NCBI GenBank assembly: GCA_965215265.1 | Contig: OZ244048.1 | Location: 192,001 to 256,000 of the forward strand | DNA from: Candidatus Poribacteria bacterium | GTDB taxonomy: Bacteria > Poribacteria > WGA-4E > WGA-3G | Direction of reading: 5' to 3' | Length of the DNA: 64,000 nt | In this document: in pieces, positions 29,082-38,512 of the stretch | Layout of the letters: the number at the start of each line of letters is the position of its first letter | Position numbering within the stretch: the stretch's first letter is position 1 | Made by a program: the position numbers and the translations under genes | Notes under the pieces: model-generated | Databases searched by the model: none | Told to the model about the DNA's origin: nothing | What the model saw: only the letters and a program-made list of their open reading frames with translations

Positions 29082-30359
29082 CTACGGTAACCGAATTAAC
29101 GTTTTAGCAGTAGCAAAGGCTTCTTCACGCGTTCGAATTTCGCCATTAAATTGGCGTTCCTCGATTTGTTTGAGGAGCATTCCAATTTCTTTCCCTTCTT
29201 TCAAGTTGAACGTGCGCATCAAATCTTTGCCTGTGATAAGTCTGCCCTGCTTGAGGATCGGAAGAAAATGTTGGTAATAAATATCCGCAATCCGGCTGAT
29301 CTGTGAGTCTGTTAGCCTATGCAGGGTAGTAGAAAAAAGCAGTACGCCCCACCACTCAGCACCTGTTCGCTGCAAAAATCGAATTATCTCCTGTTGTCCC
29401 AACTGTGCTGCTGTTAGTTGTTGGTGCTCTGAAGCGATGCATTTCATAAAACGCGTCGCTTTGCGGCTTAACCTAAGCCGTTTAGCGACATTTCCAATTT
29501 CACCTTGCAAAAGTAGACAGAGTTTAATGAGAGAACGACGGCTGACTTCTGAACCTAATTTTCCTGAGAGGTAATCCTCAATTTTAGTCTGGTAAACGCA
29601 AACTGCTTTTGGAATTGGGCATGCTTCAAAGATTTCTAAAGCTGCCCATCCTGTAGGCACAAAAATATGTTGCAACAGCTGAACTTCAAACATCTTCTGC
29701 AAATGCGTGTACGCTTGTTGAGTCGCGAGAATTTTCATCAATTCGTCACGAGTCCGTTCTGTGGAGACATCTGGTAATAGATGATGATATTTCTGGATGA
29801 GGTTAGTAGCATTTTGAGATATTTTAAAACCGAGTTGCGCTGCGAATCGGTAAATCCGCATGAGGCGAAGTGGATCGTCTTGGATAACTTGCTCACTCGG
29901 AAATTGGAGTTGACATGCTGCAAGATCGCCCATGCCGCTACAAGGGTCGATTACTGCCTGTTTTCCGGTGAATATGCTTTGCAAAGAGGCATCTTTTTCT
30001 TTTGATGTCAAAATAGCGTTGAGCGAGATTGCCATTGCATTAATCGTCAGGTCGCGCAAACGCAAATCGTCTAATAGAGATGCCGCTCGAAATTGCGCAA
30101 AGTCGAGACTAAGCGTTTTGACAACGACCCGCGCGGTAGGCGGATGCTCTTCCATAGCGATAAAAGTTCCATCGATGTGCTCGGCGAACGCTTTAGCAAA
30201 TTGAATTGCATCCCCAGCCAGTGCGAAATCTATATCTGTGATTGGGCGATTAAGTAGCAAGTCGCGAACACTGCCTCCTACGAGGTATAACTGAACCCCG
30301 CGTGCCTTTGCAAAAGTAGCTAGTGCTTCAATAAAGGGAGCATGTGTAGGTAAGATCAT
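29082..30359 (-). CDS. Second class II tRNA nucleotidyltransferase, likely CC-adding type
   Basis: 'VGGSVRD...DIDFA', 'DDLRLRDLTINAMA' and 'DDPLR'; lacks the loop between motifs A and B. Confidence 0.75.
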   Translation of the reverse strand: MILPTHAPFIEALATFAKARGVQLYLVGGSVRDLLLNRPITDIDFALAGDAIQFAKAFAEHIDGTFIAMEEHPPTARVVVKTLSLDFAQFRAASLLDDLRLRDLTINAMAISLNAILTSKEKDASLQSIFTGKQAVIDPCSGMGDLAACQLQFPSEQVIQDDPLRLMRIYRFAAQLGFKISQNATNLIQKYHHLLPDVSTERTRDELMKILATQQAYTHLQKMFEVQLLQHIFVPTGWAALEIFEACPIPKAVCVYQTKIEDYLSGKLGSEVSRRSLIKLCLLLQGEIGNVAKRLRLSRKATRFMKCIASEHQQLTAAQLGQQEIIRFLQRTGAEWWGVLLFSTTLHRLTDSQISRIADIYYQHFLPILKQGRLITGKDLMRTFNLKEGKEIGMLLKQIEERQFNGEIRTREEAFATAKTLIRLP

Positions 30360-30404: not shown

Positions 30405-31013
30405 TTAATTTCTTTGCCGGGCTTTCCGTCTTTGTACTTTACGCGATTGGAACAAGATGCCATCAAGGTGAAGATGTGTCGCGTACCCGATAAAACTTGC
30501 GACATAAAACGGTAAACCGGTCTGGGCTGCAGCAGGAAGTTCTTCTAATGCAAGATCGAATAGAACTGAAACCGACTTCGAGGTTGTATTCCAGTCTGGA
30601 TACGCCGCGTAAATCGGAACGATCAGAAATAGACACGGTAAGAGCAGCATCGTAACCTTGGAATGTGTCCAACCGCGATGTTTACTGATAATCGGGAGCA
30701 TTGCACAGAGCCCCAGGATTGCTGATTCCAGATACCTCTGAAAAATAATGAGGAGAGCATTCAAAACGAATAGCACACGATAAAAAATTTTCTGACTTTT
30801 GCTCTTAATATCCACATCCGGCCACAGCCCGAATAAGACAGCTACTGCGAAGCATCCGATTATTTTCATAGGATTATTGATGGAAACTGTTGGGTTCCAT
30901 TCCCATGATAAGCCCGTAAGGATTGAAACGGTGATAGTAGCAACGAACGATATTGCGAAAAACGCGCTATAGGTTATTAACGCGCCGATCCAGTGTTCAC
31001 GAAACATACTCAT
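30405..31013 (-). CDS. Membrane-bound metal-dependent hydrolase (YdjM/DUF457-like)
   Basis: 'FREH', 'LWPDVD', 'HRGWTHS' and 'GYATHLHLD'. Confidence 0.85.
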   Translation of the reverse strand: MSMFREHWIGALITYSAFFAISFVATITVSILTGLSWEWNPTVSINNPMKIIGCFAVAVLFGLWPDVDIKSKSQKIFYRVLFVLNALLIIFQRYLESAILGLCAMLPIISKHRGWTHSKVTMLLLPCLFLIVPIYAAYPDWNTTSKSVSVLFDLALEELPAAAQTGLPFYVASFIGYATHLHLDGILFQSRKVQRRKARQRN

Positions 31014-31149
31014 GAAAAATAGTATAGCATGGTTTTTAACGGAAAGCAATATAGATTTGTCGTCTCATTTACCCCATTTTTTTTGAAGTTTTGTGGTGAA
31101 AGGTTTTTGTTTGTAAACGTGTGAGAAAAGCCGTGGGTTTATAATAAAA

Positions 31150-31376
31150 TACCTCTTTTCGTATCTTGAGCCCATCAACGGCTGATGTTGTGTCAATCAC
31201 TGTATAAATCTCGTTTTTTCGTCTCTTTCAGCCCAATAACTCTTTATGTTTTGAAAACCTAAGCACAAATTTCGTCAGAGGGTTCTGATGCTATGAATCT
31301 AAACAGAGAAAACCTCCGACGAGATTTACACACGAGGACTCACGACATAAGCGTTGACGGTACGGAGAGATACGAA
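31150..31376. repeat. Cluster of ~61-bp repeat units: two tandem units on the minus strand (~31150-31285) back-to-back with one on the plus strand (31311-31376)
   Basis: Reverse complement reads 'acgaaatttgtg...acataaagagttattgggctgaaagagacgaaaaaacgagatttatacagtgattgacacaacatcagccgttgatggg', matching the unit at 55115-55300; plus copy 'cctccgacgagatttacacacg...acataagcgttgacggtacggagagatacgaa'. Confidence 0.8.
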
Positions 31377-31380
31377 CTGT

Positions 31381-33116
31381 TTATTCGGTTACCACGGTTT
31401 CCTCGCCAAGCATATCAATAATCTTGATGGCAACGCGGGCATCACGGCGCGGCAGCACTACCGTGTATTGGCCCTTGATAAATTCGCTCTGCTTCTCCGG
31501 CAAATCACTCGCAACGATTCTGAAATGCCTGCCGTTGTAGTCCGTATCTATCAGCACGCAATCAATCTGCGCACGGAAATCATCAACTTGTTCGTCAAAG
31601 AGGGTGCGGGCTATCTCCAAACGCCCTAAGAGGCTCGGACTGATATAATCTACGAGGGTAATGGTGACGTGTTGCCTGTCTCTTTTGAAGGCAACTTCTG
31701 CTTCAGCAGGGGCGAAGGTGGTGACACCGTCGCGTTGGATGTCCCGCACGATGAGTTGATTAATCGGGTGCCGCTTGTTTTCTGAGTCAAGTTCGGCTTG
31801 TATTCCCAACTCGCTGCCGTTGCAGAGGACTGTAACAGCGCGTGCCTCATCCGGGCGGTGCTGCAGTTCGTCTTTGATAAGCTGAATATCTAATCGGGTG
31901 AGCGGTTTCGTCAGCTCAACGATTTTGACGAGGGTTCCGTCTACGGTGCCGTCAAAGAAGGGGTCCTTCTTGTCGGTTTCGACACCATACTTTTCGATGA
32001 GGAGCCTGCGAAGTTCCTGTTGTTCGCTAAAGTGATAGTTATTGATGCGATAATGAGCGATTCCGCGGTGTTCGGCAATAGTTGTCTGGATGCGTTTCAT
32101 TGTCGTCTGTATCGCGCCTCTGTTCAGATCTGCGGCGATCCAGCGTCTGCGGAGTTTTTCAGCGACGACTGCGGTGGTGCCACTGCCCACAAAGCAATCA
32201 AGCACGATGGAGTCTTCGTTGCTTGACGCTTTGATGATACGGGCTAGAAGAGCCTCCGGTTTTTGAGTAGGAAAGTCGGAACGTTCCCCATCCATAGTGT
32301 TAAGAGCGGGAAGAATAATTACATCATCAGGAGTTTTACCTTTTGGCATTTCTTTACCCTCTTGACCACCACTTTTGTATCGCCATTCAGTCATACTACT
32401 TTCATAAGGGACAAGTATTTCGTCACGATTGAAAATGTATTTGTCCTGCGATTTGGTATACCAGAAAATAGTCTCATGCGCATGGGCTAATCTCTTTTTT
32501 CCACGAGAGGCGTTCTTGTAGTACCAAATAATTTCATTCTGAAATAGTTCTTCGTCAAATACCTCATCCATGATTATTTTTAAATAGTGACTTTTCTCAT
32601 GGTTGCAGTGCAAGTAAATTGAACCTTTATCTGATAGCAGTTCGCGCATCAAGATTAGGCGTTCAAACATGAACTGGAGATAATTGTCATTCGCCCAGAT
32701 GTCGGTGTATTGTGTCTGTTCAATAATGGAGGGGCCTTCGCCTGTTAAAGAAGCAGGTTTACCCCCCCCCTACTCCCACCTGGGTTCCCAGCACCTTCAT
32801 CCAAGGTTGACCTGCTAATGCCGCGGAGTTTTACCTTTCGAACGTAGTCTGCACCGCTGGCAAAGGGCGGGTCAATGTAGATGAGGTCTATCTTACTGCG
32901 GAAACCGTTGACGAGTAAGGTGGAGAGGATCTCCTTGTTATCCCCGTGAAAAAGGAGGTTCGGCCCCTCCAAAAATCCATCATATAGCGGCTCTTTCTCT
33001 GCGTTTTCAACGTTACAAGTTTCCACCAATTGGGCGGGATAGTTGCTCACCGTGCCGATGGGGCGTTTGCCCACCCAGTGCAGCATTGCTCTCCCTTTAA
33101 CCGGCGTAATTTTCAT
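31381..33116 (-). CDS. Type III Mod-like N6A/N4C DNA methyltransferase, copy A; frameshifted (OFF) at a G9 tract
   Basis: N-part (ORF 32745-33221, likely ATG 33116) has catalytic 'IDLIYIDPPF'; C-part (ORF 31381-32670) has the TRD, 'PTQKPE' and the SAM motif 'DCFVGSGTT'; G7 or G10 at 32762-32770 would join them. Confidence 0.88.
32762..32770 (-). repeat. Poly-G9 simple sequence repeat in mod copy A
   Basis: C9 on the plus strand; minus strand reads GGGAGTA-G9-TAAACC. Confidence 0.95.
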
Positions 33117-33159
33117 GAGTTCTCCTCTCGCATAGGGCTTCAGGTCCTTTTTTTTGATG

Positions 33160-34930
33160 TTATTCTGTGATGAGAGTTTCCTCGCCAAGCATATCAATAA
33201 TCTTGACGGCAACACGGGCATCAGGACGCGGCAGCACTACCGTGTATTGGCCCTTGATAAAATCGGTTCTCTTCTCCGGCACATCACTCGCAACGATTCT
33301 GACATGCCTGCCGTTGTAGTCCGTATCTATCAGCACGCAATCAATCTGCGCACGGAAATCATCAACTTGTTCGTCAAAGAGGGTGCGGGCTATCTCCAAA
33401 CGCCCTAAGAGGCTCGGACTGATATAATCTACGAGGGTGATGGTGACGTGTTGCCCGTCTCTTTTGAAGGCAACTTCTGCTTCAGCAGGGGCGAAGGTGG
33501 TGACACCGTCGCGTTGGATGTCCCGCACGATGAATTTATTAATCGAGTGCCGCTTGTTTTCTGAGTCAAGTTCGGCTTGTATTCCCAACTCGCTGCCGTT
33601 GCAGAGGACTGTAACAGCGCGTGCCTCATCAGGGCGGTGCTGAAGTTCGTCTTTGATAAGTTGAATATCTAATCGGGTGAGCGGTTTTGTCAGCTCAACG
33701 ATTTTGACAAGCGTCCCCTCTACGGTGCCGTCAAAGAATCGGTCTTTCTTGTCCGTTTCTATGCCATACTTTTCGATGACAAGCCGATGGAGTTCTTGTT
33801 CTTTGCCAAAGTGATAATTATTGATGCGATAGTGAGCGATTCCGCGGTGTTCGGCAATGGTTGTCTGGATGCGTTTCATTGTCGTCTGTATCGCGCCTCT
33901 GTTCAGATCTGCGGCAATCCAGCGTCTGCGGAGTTTTTCAGCGGCGACTGCGGTGGTGCCACTGCCCACAAAGCAATCCAAGACAATGTCGTTTGCGTTA
34001 GAAGAGGCTTTGATAATCCGCTCAAGCAGCTTCAACGGTTTCTGCGTAGGATACAGCCTTTCTGAAGCCTGCTGGTTAATAATAGGAATATCTGTCCAAT
34101 AAGAAAGGACATTCCTACCTTTTCCATTGTAATACGCCTTTTTATTAGCTTTCCTAGACCAATAATAAAAGCGCTTTCCATTTTCATCTATTTCGGGATA
34201 CTGCTCAATAAGTTCATCATGTGACATTTCTAAAAATTGCCTGTTCAATGTGTTCGCTTTTCCTTTTGCGTAGAAAAGGAGAGTGTCGTGTTTTCGCGGA
34301 TATGCCCCTTCTGCAGGCTTGCCTCTATCTCCATACCCCCATACAATCTCATTCCGAAACTTATCCTCACCAAAAACCTCATCCATAATCAGTTTCAGAT
34401 AATGACTCATCGTGGGGTCACAGTGCAGGTAAATAGAACCAGCATCCGACAGCAGTTCCCGCATCAAGATAAGCCGCTCAAACATGAACTGGAGATAGTT
34501 ATCATTCGCCCAGATGTCAGTATATTGTGTCTGTTCAATAATGGAGTGACCTCCGCCTGTTAAAGAATCGGTTTTACCCCCCCCTACTCCCACGCGGGTT
34601 CCCAGCACCTTCATTCAGAGTAGTCCCTCTAATGCCGCGGAGTTTCACCTTTCGGACGTAATCTGCACCACTAGCAAAGGGCGGGTCAATGTAGATGAGG
34701 TCTATCTTACTGCGGAAACCGTTGACAAGTAAGGTGGAGAGAATTTCTTTGTTATCCCCGTGAAAAAGGAGGTTCGGGCCCTCCAAAAATCCATCATATA
34801 GCGGCTCTTTCTCTGCGTTTTCAACGTTATAAGTTTCCACCAATTGGGCGGGATAGTTGCTCACCGTGCCGATGGGGCGTTTGCCCACCCAGTGCAGCAT
34901 TGCTCTCCCTTTAACCGGCGTAATTTTCAT
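33160..34930 (-). CDS. Type III Mod-like DNA methyltransferase, copy B; frameshifted (OFF) at a G8 tract
   Basis: N-part (ORF 34574-34960, likely ATG 34930 after GGAGG) has DPPF; C-part (33160-34614) has a different TRD and 'DCFVGSGTT'; G7 or G10 at 34577-34584 restores one frame. Confidence 0.88.
34577..34584 (-). repeat. Poly-G8 simple sequence repeat in mod copy B
   Basis: C8 on the plus strand; minus strand reads GGGAGTA-G8-TAAAACC. Confidence 0.95.
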
Positions 34931-34979
34931 CGTGTTCCTCCGAATCTCCAGATTTTTCATGTGCCACAGAACGCATTTC

Positions 34980-35270
34980 CTCAGCTGGATGTGTGCGGCG
35001 GCACTCCTTTAACCCTGAGAGAATATCTAACGTTTTATCCAATGGCAATGGATGGTTGACACGAAAAAGATAAGCAAGATTCTGATAACTGAGTTGTCTC
35101 CATGCCACAAGGAAAGCAATTCCGCCTTTTGCTTCTGCTACCTCTTTTATGGCGTGCAATAGTCTTTCAATGTTCCCATCCTTGTCAAAATCGGCTCATA
35201 CAGCTTCCAGATAACCTTTGGCAAACCCCGGTTCAGCAAGCTCTTTAAGAAGAGGGGGATTGAAAGGCAC
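34980..35270 (-). pseudogene. Decayed addiction-module antidote (HI1420/HigA-like HTH antitoxin)
   Basis: Manual translation 'LLKELAEPGFAKGYLEAV*ADFDKDGNIERLLHAIKEVAEAKGGIA' with an in-frame TGA; boundaries approximate. Confidence 0.6.
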
Positions 35271-35314
35271 TGTGCACTTCTGAAGCCTGGTTTCGGTATT
35301 TGTTGTCCTTGTTC

Positions 35315-35420
35315 CTTCCTATGTTCTAAGAAGTCGTTCCAATAGTTTTGTGTTCTGGCAATGTCTTGCTGTTGTGTGCGTTTAGTTCCGCCACAAAGCA
35401 GAATAACTGGCGAATTTGCA
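35315..35420 (-). pseudogene. 5'-truncated addiction-module killer toxin (HI1419/HigB/RelE-like)
   Basis: Only the C-terminal motif 'VILLCGGTKRTQQQDIARTQNYWNDF' remains. Confidence 0.65.
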
Positions 35421-35427
35421 TATCTCA

Positions 35428-35456
35428 AGTATAGAAAATTTTTGCCGAATTGTCAA
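35428..35456 (-). promoter_or_regulatory. Near-consensus sigma70 promoter pointing into the TA remnant and the two mod genes
   Basis: Minus strand TTGACA-attcggcaaaaattttc(17)-TATACT. Confidence 0.7.
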
Positions 35457-35740
35457 GCCCTTTCTCACGGATTTATGGAACCAACGCTTTCTTATCTCGG
35501 TTTTCATGCAGAGCCACCACAGAGGCGATCCAGTCTGAGGTGATACAAGAGCACTGCTTTTCTCACAGACAAACCTAACAATATCACACATACTACTCTC
35601 AAAAAAAAATGGGGGCAAGTGAGAGATTTGTCCTGATAATACTGTTTTACTATATGGATTCAACCGGTTCAGTTTTGTGAGGTACTGGGAGGCACAACAT
35701 TCTATGCTCCGGTTACAAGCATTGACAAATTTATTTTAAT

Positions 35741-36230: not shown

Positions 36231-36423
36231 TTAATCACTTGGTTACAAAATGAGAAATAGTTAATATGTAATTCTTGGTTAGGTATTTTGGTAGTGCGCT
36301 TAAGATTCCCGGTTATGAGATAAAGAGAATCCATCGTCTGTTGCTTGGGTATCAGTTACTGAATTTCTCTGCGAGGAATCTCCACGATTGGGCTGTATAG
36401 CGTTTTTTGTTTTTAACAAGATA

Positions 36424-36909
36424 ATGACAGAAACCGAAAAATCCCACATTTTTGAATTGTTGTCTCCTATGCTATTGATTGATAGCATTGAGTTAGTAGA
36501 TGTTGAGGCACAAGGGAAGACGTTACGGCTCCTGATTTACAAATCCGGGGGGCTTTCAATAGCGGATTGCCAGTCCGTGAATGCTATTGTTCACCCAATT
36601 TTGGAGGTGCATCAGTATTTAAGAACCTATGCGCAGCTTGAAGTGGCTTCTCCGGGGATAGATAGACCTTTGAAAACAGCTGCAGACTTCCGTCGAAATC
36701 AAGGCAAGACTGTCCGGATTGAGACTGTGTCGAAAGACGAAAAAGGCACGAGCGGAAGCTGTAACGCCCCCTCCGTAGAAAACGCGGTAGTGCAAGGTTC
36801 TATCAAGGAAGTCCTGGATGGCACGGTCGTCGTTACTCAAAGCGATGGAAAGAGTATGCAGATTGAATTATCCTGCATTCACAATGCGTGCATACAGTTG
36901 GAGTGGTGA
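36424..36909 (+). CDS. rimP: Ribosome maturation factor RimP
   Basis: 'LRLLIYKSGGLSIADC' and 'LEVASPGIDRPL'; upstream of nusA. Confidence 0.9.
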   Translation: MTETEKSHIFELLSPMLLIDSIELVDVEAQGKTLRLLIYKSGGLSIADCQSVNAIVHPILEVHQYLRTYAQLEVASPGIDRPLKTAADFRRNQGKTVRIETVSKDEKGTSGSCNAPSVENAVVQGSIKEVLDGTVVVTQSDGKSMQIELSCIHNACIQLEW

Positions 36910-37225
36910 TGAAAATTCAAAAAACAATTTGCAGGATTAGAATACCTAAGAGGAATTGTGGCTTACCGTCTTATGGGAGGCAATTTGACAGTGTTAACAG
37001 TACACGATTTCCATTTGCACTTTGTTTCATTGAGAAGCCTATCCATTAGGTGGTGTTTGTCTCTTGACTGCCTTATAGGAGATAGGGCTATTTAGTTTTA
37101 GGTTTTGCTTCTAATTAAGTTTTTTTATGAGGTGTCGTGTGTCTTCTCTGCAATATCTGATAAAAGTAATTCACGCATATAAATCAAATTTGTAAAACTA
37201 AATAACTCTATATAGGAGATAATGT

Positions 37226-38512
37226 ATGTTAGCGAACCTTCAAAATGCTATTCGTCAAAATATAGCCCAAACCGATTTACCTGAGCAGGTTTTTGTTGAA
37301 GCGATCGAAGCTGCTTTGCTTGCTGCTGCGCGTCGAGTTTATGGTAATAATGCTGAGATTTCTGTGGAAATTAACCTTGAACAAGGCGAGATACGATGCT
37401 CCGTTCCTAAGCAGGTTGTTGATATTATGCGGGATCTCTCTACAGAAATTCCGATTGAAGCAGCGAGAAAACTTGATGCAGATGCAAAAATTGGAGATAA
37501 ACTTGAGGTAGAGATTAACCCGACTGAGTTTGGACGCATTCCAGCCCAATTAGCTCGTCAAATCTTGCGCCAAAAAATAAAAGAGGCAGAACGGGAAAAA
37601 ATCTATGAGGAATTCGCAGGGCGTGAAGGCGAAGTTGTCACTGGGCACGTACAGCGTTTTGAACGCGGCGGCATCATTCTCGATTTAGAGCAGACTGAAG
37701 CGTTTTTGCCACCGCGGGAGATACCTCGTGCAAAAAGTTACGAACGCGGCAAACGTCTACAATGTCTCATCTTAGAAGTGAAAAATGAAACCCGAGGGGC
37801 TCCTATTGTCGTCTCACGAACGCATCGTGACCTTGTGTCGATGTTATTTGAGCAAGAAGTCCCCGAAATTTATGAAGGTCAGGTGCGTATTATGGGAGTT
37901 GCCCGCGATCCGGGCAAACGGGCGAAAGTCGCTGTCATGGCAACAGAAGAAGGGATTGATGCTGTTGGAACCTGCGTGGGTGTCAAAGGCGTTCGCGTCC
38001 AAACTATTGTTGATGAACTTGATAATGAAAAAATTGATCTGATCGAATGGAATGAGGAGGCAAGCGTTTTTATTGCTAACGCCTTGTGCCCGGCTACAGT
38101 ACAGCGGGTTGAACTTAACGCTGATGAAAACAGTGCCCGGGTTATTGTTCCCGATAATGAACTTTCCCTCGCAATTGGACGACGAGGACAAAACGCGAGA
38201 CTCGCCGCAAAATTGACAGGCTGGAAAATTGATATCAAGAGTGAATCCGAGGCAACGGTTTCAATTGATGAACTTTTTAAACCTACAGCGCACAGTGATG
38301 AAAACGCCCCCCTGCACGATTCCAACGGACTTGAAGCAGAAGACAAGGTTTTGCAATCACCGGAATTGCCCTCGGAAGACACAAAAGAAGTGAAAGCAGA
38401 GACTGCCAACGTATCTACAGAAGATGTACCTGCTTTGCCAATTGATGTTCCACAGACTGAGCCGGAGAACTTGTCGCTTAAAACAGAGAAATCTGATGCA
38501 GGAGATGGGTAA
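37226..38512 (+). CDS. nusA: Transcription termination/antitermination factor NusA
   Basis: 'FGRIPAQ', 'EVPEIYEG' and 'SLAIGRRGQNARLAAKLTGWKIDI'. Confidence 0.97.
   Translation: MLANLQNAIRQNIAQTDLPEQVFVEAIEAALLAAARRVYGNNAEISVEINLEQGEIRCSVPKQVVDIMRDLSTEIPIEAARKLDADAKIGDKLEVEINPTEFGRIPAQLARQILRQKIKEAEREKIYEEFAGREGEVVTGHVQRFERGGIILDLEQTEAFLPPREIPRAKSYERGKRLQCLILEVKNETRGAPIVVSRTHRDLVSMLFEQEVPEIYEGQVRIMGVARDPGKRAKVAVMATEEGIDAVGTCVGVKGVRVQTIVDELDNEKIDLIEWNEEASVFIANALCPATVQRVELNADENSARVIVPDNELSLAIGRRGQNARLAAKLTGWKIDIKSESEATVSIDELFKPTAHSDENAPLHDSNGLEAEDKVLQSPELPSEDTKEVKAETANVSTEDVPALPIDVPQTEPENLSLKTEKSDAGDG

Follow-up and report, generated by a model that had tools for sequence, protein, structure and literature searches.

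Poly-G runs hold ten Mod-like methyltransferase genes of a sponge-symbiotic Poribacteria genome out of frame: candidate slipped-strand switches on alternative specificity subunits

Tandem methyltransferase genes split by poly-G runs

We analysed a stretch of 64,000 nucleotides (hereafter the window; contig OZ244048.1, positions 192,001-256,000) from the single contig of a Candidatus Poribacteria genome (4,833,177 bp, 48.1% G+C), in which a pair of PF01555 methyltransferase genes is interrupted by poly-G runs. The two genes, copies A and B, lie in tandem and in the same orientation on the minus strand, 43 nt apart. By our reading of the open reading frames (ORFs), copy B occupies 33160-34930 (PF01555 E-value 7e-44) and copy A 31381-33116 (4e-48), the start at 33116 being one base off that implied by an earlier interpretation made from the letters of the window (the sequence-only reading). 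That reading had taken the pair for a candidate two-switch phasevarion of orphan methyltransferases in a Poribacteria-like symbiont, an attribution that agrees with our searches: the organism is a sponge symbiont whose nearest related loci are those of Candidatus Poribacteria metagenome-assembled genomes (MAGs), the gene family occurring also in sponge-associated MAGs of many other phyla.

Each gene is broken in the same sense-strand context, GGGAGTA-Gn-TAAA, by nine G residues in copy A (32762-32770, minus strand; C9 on the plus strand) and by eight in copy B (34577-34584, minus strand; C8 on the plus strand), and each run leaves its gene out of frame. These are the sole G/C runs of at least 8 in the window, and translation confirmed the coordinates, lengths and context first reported for them. 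In copy B the N-terminal frame (N frame; 34930-34577, 118 codons) ends ..GNPRGSRGG with TAA directly after the run, and the C-terminal frame (C frame) is open from 34614 and continues from 34575 to a stop at 33160. In copy A the N frame begins at 33116, passes the run and terminates after ..GGVNLLL, and the C frame extends from 32760 to a stop at 31381. Counted from the codon after the run, the long C frames comprise 471 codons in B and 459 in A. In either gene, translation at different run lengths gave a continuous frame from the N part into the long C part solely with G7 or G10, as had been claimed; with G8 the N frame stops at the TAA after the run, and with G9 it reads on to the ..GGVNLLL end.

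The match of the C fragments to PF01555 (N6_N4_Mtase) covers profile positions 17-220 of 221, and the missing start of the profile, the DPPF catalytic motif (motif IV), was located in the N fragments, upstream of the run (34676-34687 in B, 32862-32873 in A, minus strand). Downstream of the run lie, on the same strand, the S-adenosylmethionine (AdoMet)-binding motif I (FVGSGTT at 33952-33972 in B; FxGSGTT, here FVGSGTT, at 32173-32193 in A) and, between motifs IV and I, a variable middle delimited by blastn breakpoints, alignment and identity matrices (34054-34338 in B, 32273-32523 in A), the target-recognition domain (TRD). The order of motifs is thus that of Mod-like enzymes, and the break falls between DPPF and the TRD, where the sequence-only reading had placed it.

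Ten paralogues under purifying selection

A blastn search of the genome returned ten dispersed full-length paralogues, A and B being two of them, with a second tandem pair (C5/C6) at genome positions 1,195,280-1,198,849. The idea of a self-contained two-switch unit was accordingly abandoned, the pair representing two of ten paralogues within a set of at least 36 run-broken genes (see below). The run occupies the identical site in all ten copies (seven G8, three G9) and all ten are out of frame; over ~1.7 kb each, no further stop or frameshift was found (0/10). Each copy consists of 115 N codons and 459-485 C codons. The constant parts share 88-98% protein identity, A and B resembling C5/C6 at 92-98% in the N-terminal part and core and at 91-95% in the C-terminal part. 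The TRDs are all distinct (26-55% identity); those of A and B are 28% identical, in keeping with the different specificities already predicted for the two copies.

Over the 45 pairs of paralogues, which are not independent and in whose constant parts gene conversion may be acting, the ratio of nonsynonymous to synonymous divergence (dN/dS) came to 0.147 upstream of the run (115 codons); downstream it was 0.128 over the initial 45 codons and 0.177 over the final 285, with dS of 0.18-0.39. Both flanking parts of the coding sequence are under purifying selection (dN/dS about 0.15), and therefore each half was translated in its own frame during divergence of the copies.

This result bears on the possibility that the runs expanded from an in-frame G7 and left ten silent relics, possibly kept alike by gene conversion. 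Such decay would fit the out-of-frame state of every copy and every related allele found, as well as the degenerate small ORFs in the flanks; it is opposed by the absence of a second lesion in any of the ten copies, by dN/dS of 0.13-0.18 at the dS given above, and by TRDs that have stayed open although they are too diverged for conversion repair, so that gene conversion cannot account for them. We consider this simple-pseudogene alternative, which the sequence-only reading had itself raised, quite improbable. The data support the view that A and B are not decaying pseudogenes but genes otherwise intact and under selection.

The loop that carries the run

Intact orthologues, defined by one ORF of at least 540 aa, were found in 66 of 79 related loci; they have a short loop without a run and read ..DPPF(A/D)SGADYVRKV.LRG, followed by ~8 residues and GHS.IEQ.QY... 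At that loop the ten paralogues studied here carry ~19 extra residues (I(R/S)..EGAGNP.GSRGG), which contain the run. In 15 of the 79 loci the loop holds in-frame GNGNGN.. repeats, whose DNA consists of hexanucleotide arrays such as (AATGGC)n (two examples have 13 and 7.8 copies); the loop after DPPF therefore tolerates insertions and is repeat-prone. The GN arrays lie at ~2400-2500 in each of these loci (L038, L045, L046, L052, L053, L056, L060, L065, L066, L069, L071, L074, L077, L093 and L095), which belong to sponge symbionts of other phyla, and their length varies among genomes.

Runs of G occur in this family outside the present genome as well. The orthologue of a genome of the same genus (G001) carries G9 in a homologous, longer insertion and, with a different downstream indel, is in frame at this length, encoding a predicted protein of 609-612 aa; its translation shows that a run-bearing Mod can be in frame. 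Two other Poribacteria genera have acquired independent runs in the family, with all four genes out of frame: one genus has G9 and G6 at the loop (L039, L027), the other a tandem pair (L022) in which each gene carries C9 in its N-terminal region.

The position of the break raised the question of a split enzyme, in which the two pieces of a G8 copy would be separate products that come together across the permissive loop. In all seven G8 copies the C frame starts with MKVLG.. or VKVLG.. upstream of the run and is open from this ATG or GTG, 13 codons before the run end, overlapping the N-frame stop; the break, moreover, falls in a loop tolerant of long insertions. In the G9 copies, A among them, however, the C frame has TAG directly before the run, and the next start loses conserved sequence. 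No fragment-only relative came from outside this lineage among the clusters listed, and a split enzyme appears very improbable.

Homopolymer-split genes across the genome

Runs of G or C of lengths 5 to 11 occur 3152, 500, 66, 44, 46, 4 and 6 times in the genome. The chance that a run extends by one more base is 0.17-0.25 for runs of 3-6 and rises to 0.54-0.63 for runs of 7 and 8, giving 100 runs of at least 8 versus roughly 25 expected and 56 of at least 9 versus roughly 5, where the expected counts are our own extrapolation from the decay of runs of 3-6. Read as G-runs, whichever strand is coding, the runs of at least 8 are preceded by A in 77/100 cases and followed by T in 76/100, and by TAA in 30/100. 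Length 10 is nearly absent, with 4 runs as against 44, 46 and 6 for lengths 8, 9 and 11.

Defining a gene-splitting run by ORF geometry, as one that separates two long frames of the same strand, we counted at least 36. Their genes were assigned to families by Pfam searches with representatives and, for the remainder, by shared flanks or tblastn, and 35 of the 36 belong to methylase or restriction families, the exception being ComEC. The set includes the ten Mods, a 7-copy Eco57I/TaqI_C/MmeI family (~4 kb), a 3-copy MmeI/Eco57I family and several PF01555 families, one with a TypeIII_RM_meth domain and one with a fused Mrr nuclease domain. A correction by +1 is needed by 23 of the 24 splitting runs of length 9, and by -1 or +2 by 11 of the 12 of length 8, so that no length but 7 or 10 restores the frame in 34 of 36, which come from about 9 of 11 unrelated families.

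Several members of this genome-wide collection deserve mention in their own right. Every copy of the 7-copy, Type IIG-like family (genome positions 434253, 1723390, 2336721, 3871605, 4074228, 4198973 and 4369280) is split by C8 or C9 ~1 kb from its start and would be in frame only at 7 or 10. The comEC gene (Competence and Lactamase_B domains; genome position 3229028, locus L105) is split by C8 and needs +1. A 13-copy LRR family has a C8/C9 run at the 5' end, after a possible ATG (for example at 80858, 1370713 and 2278266; L102, L151), in the context ..gaATGcaC9tATGtATG.., where the two following ATGs lie in different frames; this looks like a start-site switch. With PF01555 as query, several Poribacteria genomes gave 40-49 matches, unusually many, compared with 42 here, including genomes where G-runs are few.

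Exact G9 runs number 44, 29, 28, 20, 17, 13 and 11 in other run-rich Poribacteria genomes, compared with 46 here, and most remaining Poribacteria genomes have 0-5, including three single-contig genomes with 0-2. One genome in 210 contigs has 20. Set against contig number, these counts indicate that run richness follows lineage and not assembly type.

Run lengths in this and other strains

We considered whether the breaks are errors of sequencing or assembly, in intact genes whose runs are in truth G10 (or G7). One common length, 10, restores the frame at 34 of the 36 broken runs, G10 accounts for only 4 of 100 runs, and the genome, being one long contig, is probably a long-read assembly. Runs are nonetheless called correctly in frame in long intact genes: rpoC (1917 aa) and an ABC-associated gene each contain a run of 8, a DUF5916 gene one of 9 and an LRR/LTD gene one of 10, and other methylases have runs of 8 and 11. 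Because of the in-frame runs of 8, 9 and 10 in intact genes, and because repair of the broken genes requires changes of length in both directions, we regard the run lengths as trustworthy. The lineage distribution of G9 runs (20 in the 210-contig genome, 0-2 in three one-contig genomes), the independently built contigs of other samples, which have G8 or G9 and nothing longer, and at least 9 out-of-frame N-fragment alleles from other, fragmented assemblies argue the same way, leaving an assembly error highly improbable.

The lengths in other samples were read from contigs, not raw reads, of four public sequencing runs from three studies. The context of A has G9 in X1 and X5 (in X5 as a gapless piece of 226 nt), G8 in X6, and G9 with a minor G8 in X3. 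That of B has G8 in X1 (gapless, 177 nt) and G9 together with one base change in X3; X5 leaves part of copy B uncovered. No form other than G8 or G9 was seen among these contigs. A pattern search of metagenome contigs returned 0 stretches with the tract and its flanks, and 28 stretches, none gene-related, with a shorter pattern.

Predicted proteins pointed to variation as well. Among proteins of similar length, the copies fell in a cluster of 16 N fragments, and of the 15 listed, 9 came from contigs other than this chromosome; all 9 have the 123-aa, G9-type form, which ends ..SRGGV..LL, and they include paralogue types with G8 in this genome. In a second N-fragment cluster from other sources two alleles end at ..SRGG and one at ..SKGGG, each before a stop, the last being 3 nt longer in the same frame and equivalent to a run of 11. 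Since N fragments of both 118 aa and 123 aa exist for the same paralogue types, run length varies among strains (G8, G9 and the 11-equivalent). The comparison of tract lengths across relatives suggested by the sequence-only reading has yielded differences among strains, and the alleles found in the species group are all out of frame.

That uniformity keeps another explanation alive, namely that the out-of-frame DNA is the normal state and is decoded by programmed slippage. Full-length Mod would then come from a minority of slipping messages or ribosomes, either because RNA polymerase adds or drops a G or through a ribosomal +1/-1 shift, and the run would be an attenuator of expression, not a heritable switch. 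Polymerase slippage is known for A/T runs, and runs of 8-9 are about as long as the RNA-DNA hybrid. Consistent with such decoding, the out-of-frame state is universal in the species group, with no in-frame form among the ten copies and the alleles of other contigs, yet both halves are under purifying selection, and a single frame class embraces the 34 of 36 broken runs in about 9 of 11 unrelated families. In the G8 copies the zero frame meets TAA right after GGG, with a GGAG-like stretch just upstream, an arrangement that resembles the +1 shift site of prfB. No single direction of slippage would serve all genes, however, since G8 needs -1 or +2 and G9 needs +1 or -2; the same-genus orthologue is simply in frame at G9; and slippage has been documented less well for G/C than for A/T runs. 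We judge programmed decoding unlikely on balance, yet the universal OFF state and the shared frame class make it a rival to be taken seriously.

A single Res-like partner

A profile built from the 66 intact Mods found its best solved match in EcoP15I Mod (PDB 4zcf; 7.8e-33), spanning the N-terminal region and the core, followed by M.MboIIA (8.5e-31). For the C fragment alone the best match is M.MboIIA, and the PADLOC MTase_II models score slightly above MTase_III. The C-terminal domain of Mod (236 aa) matched no Pfam family even at E-values up to 1. The profile match and the motif order support the assignment of A and B as Mod-like beta-class methyltransferases.

The genome contains 40 matches to PF04851 (Res-like helicase). 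None falls in the window (192,001-256,000), the nearest lying at genome positions 146,021 and 292,560, in agreement with the earlier statement that no res or helicase gene is adjacent, and eight of the ten paralogues have no helicase within 13 kb. An 899-aa ORF with ResIII and PD-(D/E)xK domains, however, overlaps the start of paralogue C5, ~970 kb from A/B. Its Pfam matches are to ResIII (7e-7, weak) and, at the C-terminus, to a TnsA-like PD-(D/E)xK domain (2e-4), and its NCBIfam match, BPTD_3080 restriction endonuclease (1.6e-16), lies far below the cut-off. Alignment of 21 homologues showed the DEAH box and the PD..E.K columns to be invariant or almost so, and both are present in this genome's copy. 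Of the 79 related loci, 55 have a homologue of this protein next to Mod (53 upstream of it, 2 downstream), L002, L003 and L007 being further places where one lies beside Mod. Genomes G000 (the present one), G001, G004, G006, G007 and G015 have one Res-like copy each and 10, 1, 4, 1, 2 and 3 Mod-family genes, respectively. Because of the Res synteny, the single Res copy and the profile match to EcoP15I Mod, the family is probably a divergent Type III-like system in which one Res is common to several Mods.

G8/G9 runs with TAA on both sides are found at five paralogous ORFs (1609-1637 aa), ~0.8 kb upstream of the ResIII domain (genome positions 147411, 905173, 3160206, 1462078 and 3432067).

The sequence-only reading had described A and B as orphans serving regulation or phage evasion, not restriction, that is, as stand-alone enzymes switching ON and OFF independently and giving up to four methylome states for gene regulation without a restriction partner. 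A Mod alone can methylate, and the window, like the surroundings of eight of the ten copies, lacks a Res-like gene. Type III mod genes with simple sequence repeats (SSRs) are common, too, amounting in a REBASE survey to 662 of 3805 mod genes (17.4%), with up to 4 phasevarions per genome (PMC5909438). Against an orphan pair, A and B form no unit but are two of ten paralogues, their constant parts are 91-98% identical to those of the Res-adjacent C5/C6, the intact Res-like gene beside C5/C6, with conserved DEAH and PD..ExK motifs, encodes the family's usual neighbour, and no ON state was found. What stands of the orphan claim is the lack of Res in the window; A and B are probably not true orphans, and the independent two-switch phasevarion is improbable.

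Slipped-strand switching as the favoured reading

The reading we favour, with about even confidence, is that the runs are real, mutable slipped-strand contingency switches, OFF by default, on alternative Mod subunits. It starts from what was observed at the genes, namely their anatomy, paralogy and selection, the synteny with Res and the differences in run length between strains, and extends these observations to cells that would switch within a population, a Res that would act in trans and a benefit that would follow. It is supported by runs that are real and mutable, by genes that are under selection, and by gene classes that are typical of contingency loci.

On this reading, A and B would be two of ten Mod subunits (methylation and specificity) of a Type III-like family, each with its own TRD, and the G-run would sit in the ~19-residue insertion in the permissive loop just after DPPF. 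Through slipped-strand changes, its length would determine whether the catalytic N part and the remainder, comprising the TRD, the AdoMet-binding part and the C domain, are made as a single polypeptide. The commonest lengths, 8 and 9, would both be OFF, with ON at 7 or 10 only, so that the genes would be OFF by default in the bulk population and ON only in a minority of cells, one or two slips away. In such cells the ON Mod would methylate its own motif and, with the genome's single Res-like helicase-nuclease, could restrict DNA of that specificity. The outcome would be a bank of alternative specificities, and ten alternatives with rare ON states would lead to a consensus that is OFF at every locus.

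Several results weigh against this reading. At a classical contingency locus one would expect some isolates to be ON and others OFF, and in-frame alleles are absent from all ten copies here (0/10) and from this species group in the assemblies and proteins searched. The listed N-fragment alleles from other contigs all lack the full-length frame. When the N fragment was compared with longer proteins, 119 of the best 120 of 2487 relatives (at most 88% identity) had the short 13-residue loop without insertion, the remaining one falling outside the motif pattern used; a search with the C fragment gave, in its 11 best clusters (72-96% identity, 26 member sequences), nothing but fragments of 425-497 aa, full-length forms beginning at 65% identity or less. 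The variants in contigs are, moreover, not assignable to A or B, because the 113-nt context of A is identical in C7 and differs from C6 by run length alone, and the 132-177-nt context of B is identical in C10. As to the partner, the 899-aa Res-like protein has no PADLOC match, REase_III being matched by only 1 of its 21 homologues, and no solved relative by sequence; the gene order is res to mod, the reverse of the canonical mod to res; and Res would have to act in trans over ~970 kb. Of the ON/OFF switching first proposed, the variable length is borne out between strains and no in-frame allele was found in the species group, and the search for a Type III res gene, likewise suggested there, ended with one Res-like copy ~970 kb away that PADLOC does not recognise.

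A broader proposal goes further, and we put it forward tentatively, with clearly less than even confidence. The genome may operate a combinatorial, homopolymer-gated restriction system in which one helicase-nuclease serves a dispersed bank of ten Mods, with rare cells for each specificity, each Mod staying one or two slips short of ON since the lengths that mutation favours would both be OFF, and in which the 7-or-10 rule extends over ~34 methylase and restriction genes of several unrelated families. No larger epigenetic and defence phasome would then be known, and none earlier from an animal symbiont that is uncultured.

Relation to known systems

Phase-variable Type III mod genes include modA of Haemophilus and Neisseria and modH of Helicobacter pylori, in which the tract lies near the 5' end. 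The genes described here share with them a beta-class N6/N4 methyltransferase with a central variable TRD and conserved ends, an in-ORF simple-sequence tract that sets the frame, and several alleles or paralogues with different TRDs. They differ in comprising ten copies of one family, alongside about 24 other methylase or restriction genes broken by runs, in an uncultured sponge symbiont; in having both common lengths OFF and no ON allele found; in an intact, single and mostly unlinked Res; and in a tract placed after motif IV. EcoP15I (PDB 4zcf), the best solved relative of Mod, likewise has a partner with an SF2 (superfamily 2) helicase and a C-terminal PD-(D/E)xK nuclease. Unlike that system, the partner here has no sequence match to a solved chain and PADLOC REase_III matches only 1 of 21 homologues, the genes are ordered res to mod, Mod has an extra C-terminal domain of ~240 aa without Pfam match, and one Res would serve many Mods.

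Switchable specificity in Type I systems is exemplified by hsdS shufflons such as the pneumococcal SpnIII locus, and programmed slippage or frameshifting by Thermus dnaX, IS elements and prfB. With genes of the latter kind the paralogues have in common a conserved out-of-frame arrangement and purifying selection downstream of a slippery run; unlike them, they have a G/C and not an A/T run, and their two lengths need opposite shifts. With the shufflons, and with the TRD 'domain movement' described in H. pylori (PMC3983042), they would share one nuclease or motor with alternative specificity modules and the exchange of TRDs between conserved genes. In contrast to shufflons, the choice would come from homopolymer slippage in separate complete genes and not from site-specific recombination in one locus. 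The poly-G phasomes of Campylobacter jejuni and Helicobacter (PMC6321876, PMC2823697) are similar in having dozens of G/C runs of 8-11, modal at 8-9, enriched in restriction-modification and host-interaction genes. The present genome belongs to a different phylum and lifestyle and has about 100 runs, and its splitting runs lie nearly all in methylase or restriction genes and are almost all OFF in the consensus.

A literature search whose scope left out supplementary files found nothing on phase variation, homopolymer tracts or methylomes in Poribacteria, and the sole text containing both 'Poribacteria' and 'phase variation' is a single-cell methods review. SSR-gated Type III mod genes are well known; what is new is the phylum of the host, the size of the set, an arrangement with one Res for many Mods and the rule that both common lengths are OFF. 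Homopolymer-switched methylases have so far been found almost only in host-adapted pathogens, a handful per genome, and the scale here is ~ten times larger, with a simple rule: neither common length is ON, and the ON length is the same for almost all broken methylase or restriction genes. This suggests a new restriction layout of one nuclease and many separately gated specificity subunits. If correct, it would bear on how defence and methylation diversify in dense, phage-rich sponge microbiomes, on MAG annotation, where dozens of 'pseudogenes' would be switches, and on whether out-of-frame runs are read by slippage.

Flanks and neighbouring genes

Upstream of copy B, an approximately 700-nt flank (34931-35630, minus strand) was found by flank blastn to be repeated at most paralogue loci. 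It includes a promoter-like site at 35456-35428 (minus strand), identified by consensus scan alone, and small ORFs that are degenerate, overlapping and apparently broken (34911-35428, minus strand; likewise 2401-2829 of locus L115). The two small ORFs upstream of copy B had no Pfam match; they resemble a HigB/RelE-like toxin and a helix-turn-helix (HTH) antitoxin, and we take them to be toxin-antitoxin remnants. On the other side, alignment delimited a flank of ~310 nt (31072-31380, minus strand) common to 6 of 8 paralogue loci, and the contigs from all four public sequencing runs diverge at 31072. By eye, neither terminal inverted repeats nor target duplications were evident in the flank alignment where the repeated unit ends. 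The neighbouring genes at 29082-30359 and 30405-31049 (both minus strand) and 36388-38512 (plus strand) look ordinary and none is broken; among the neighbours are a nucleotidyltransferase like the CCA-adding enzyme, as judged from its sequence, and a YdjM-family membrane protein (Pfam), followed by rimP-like and nusA-like genes.

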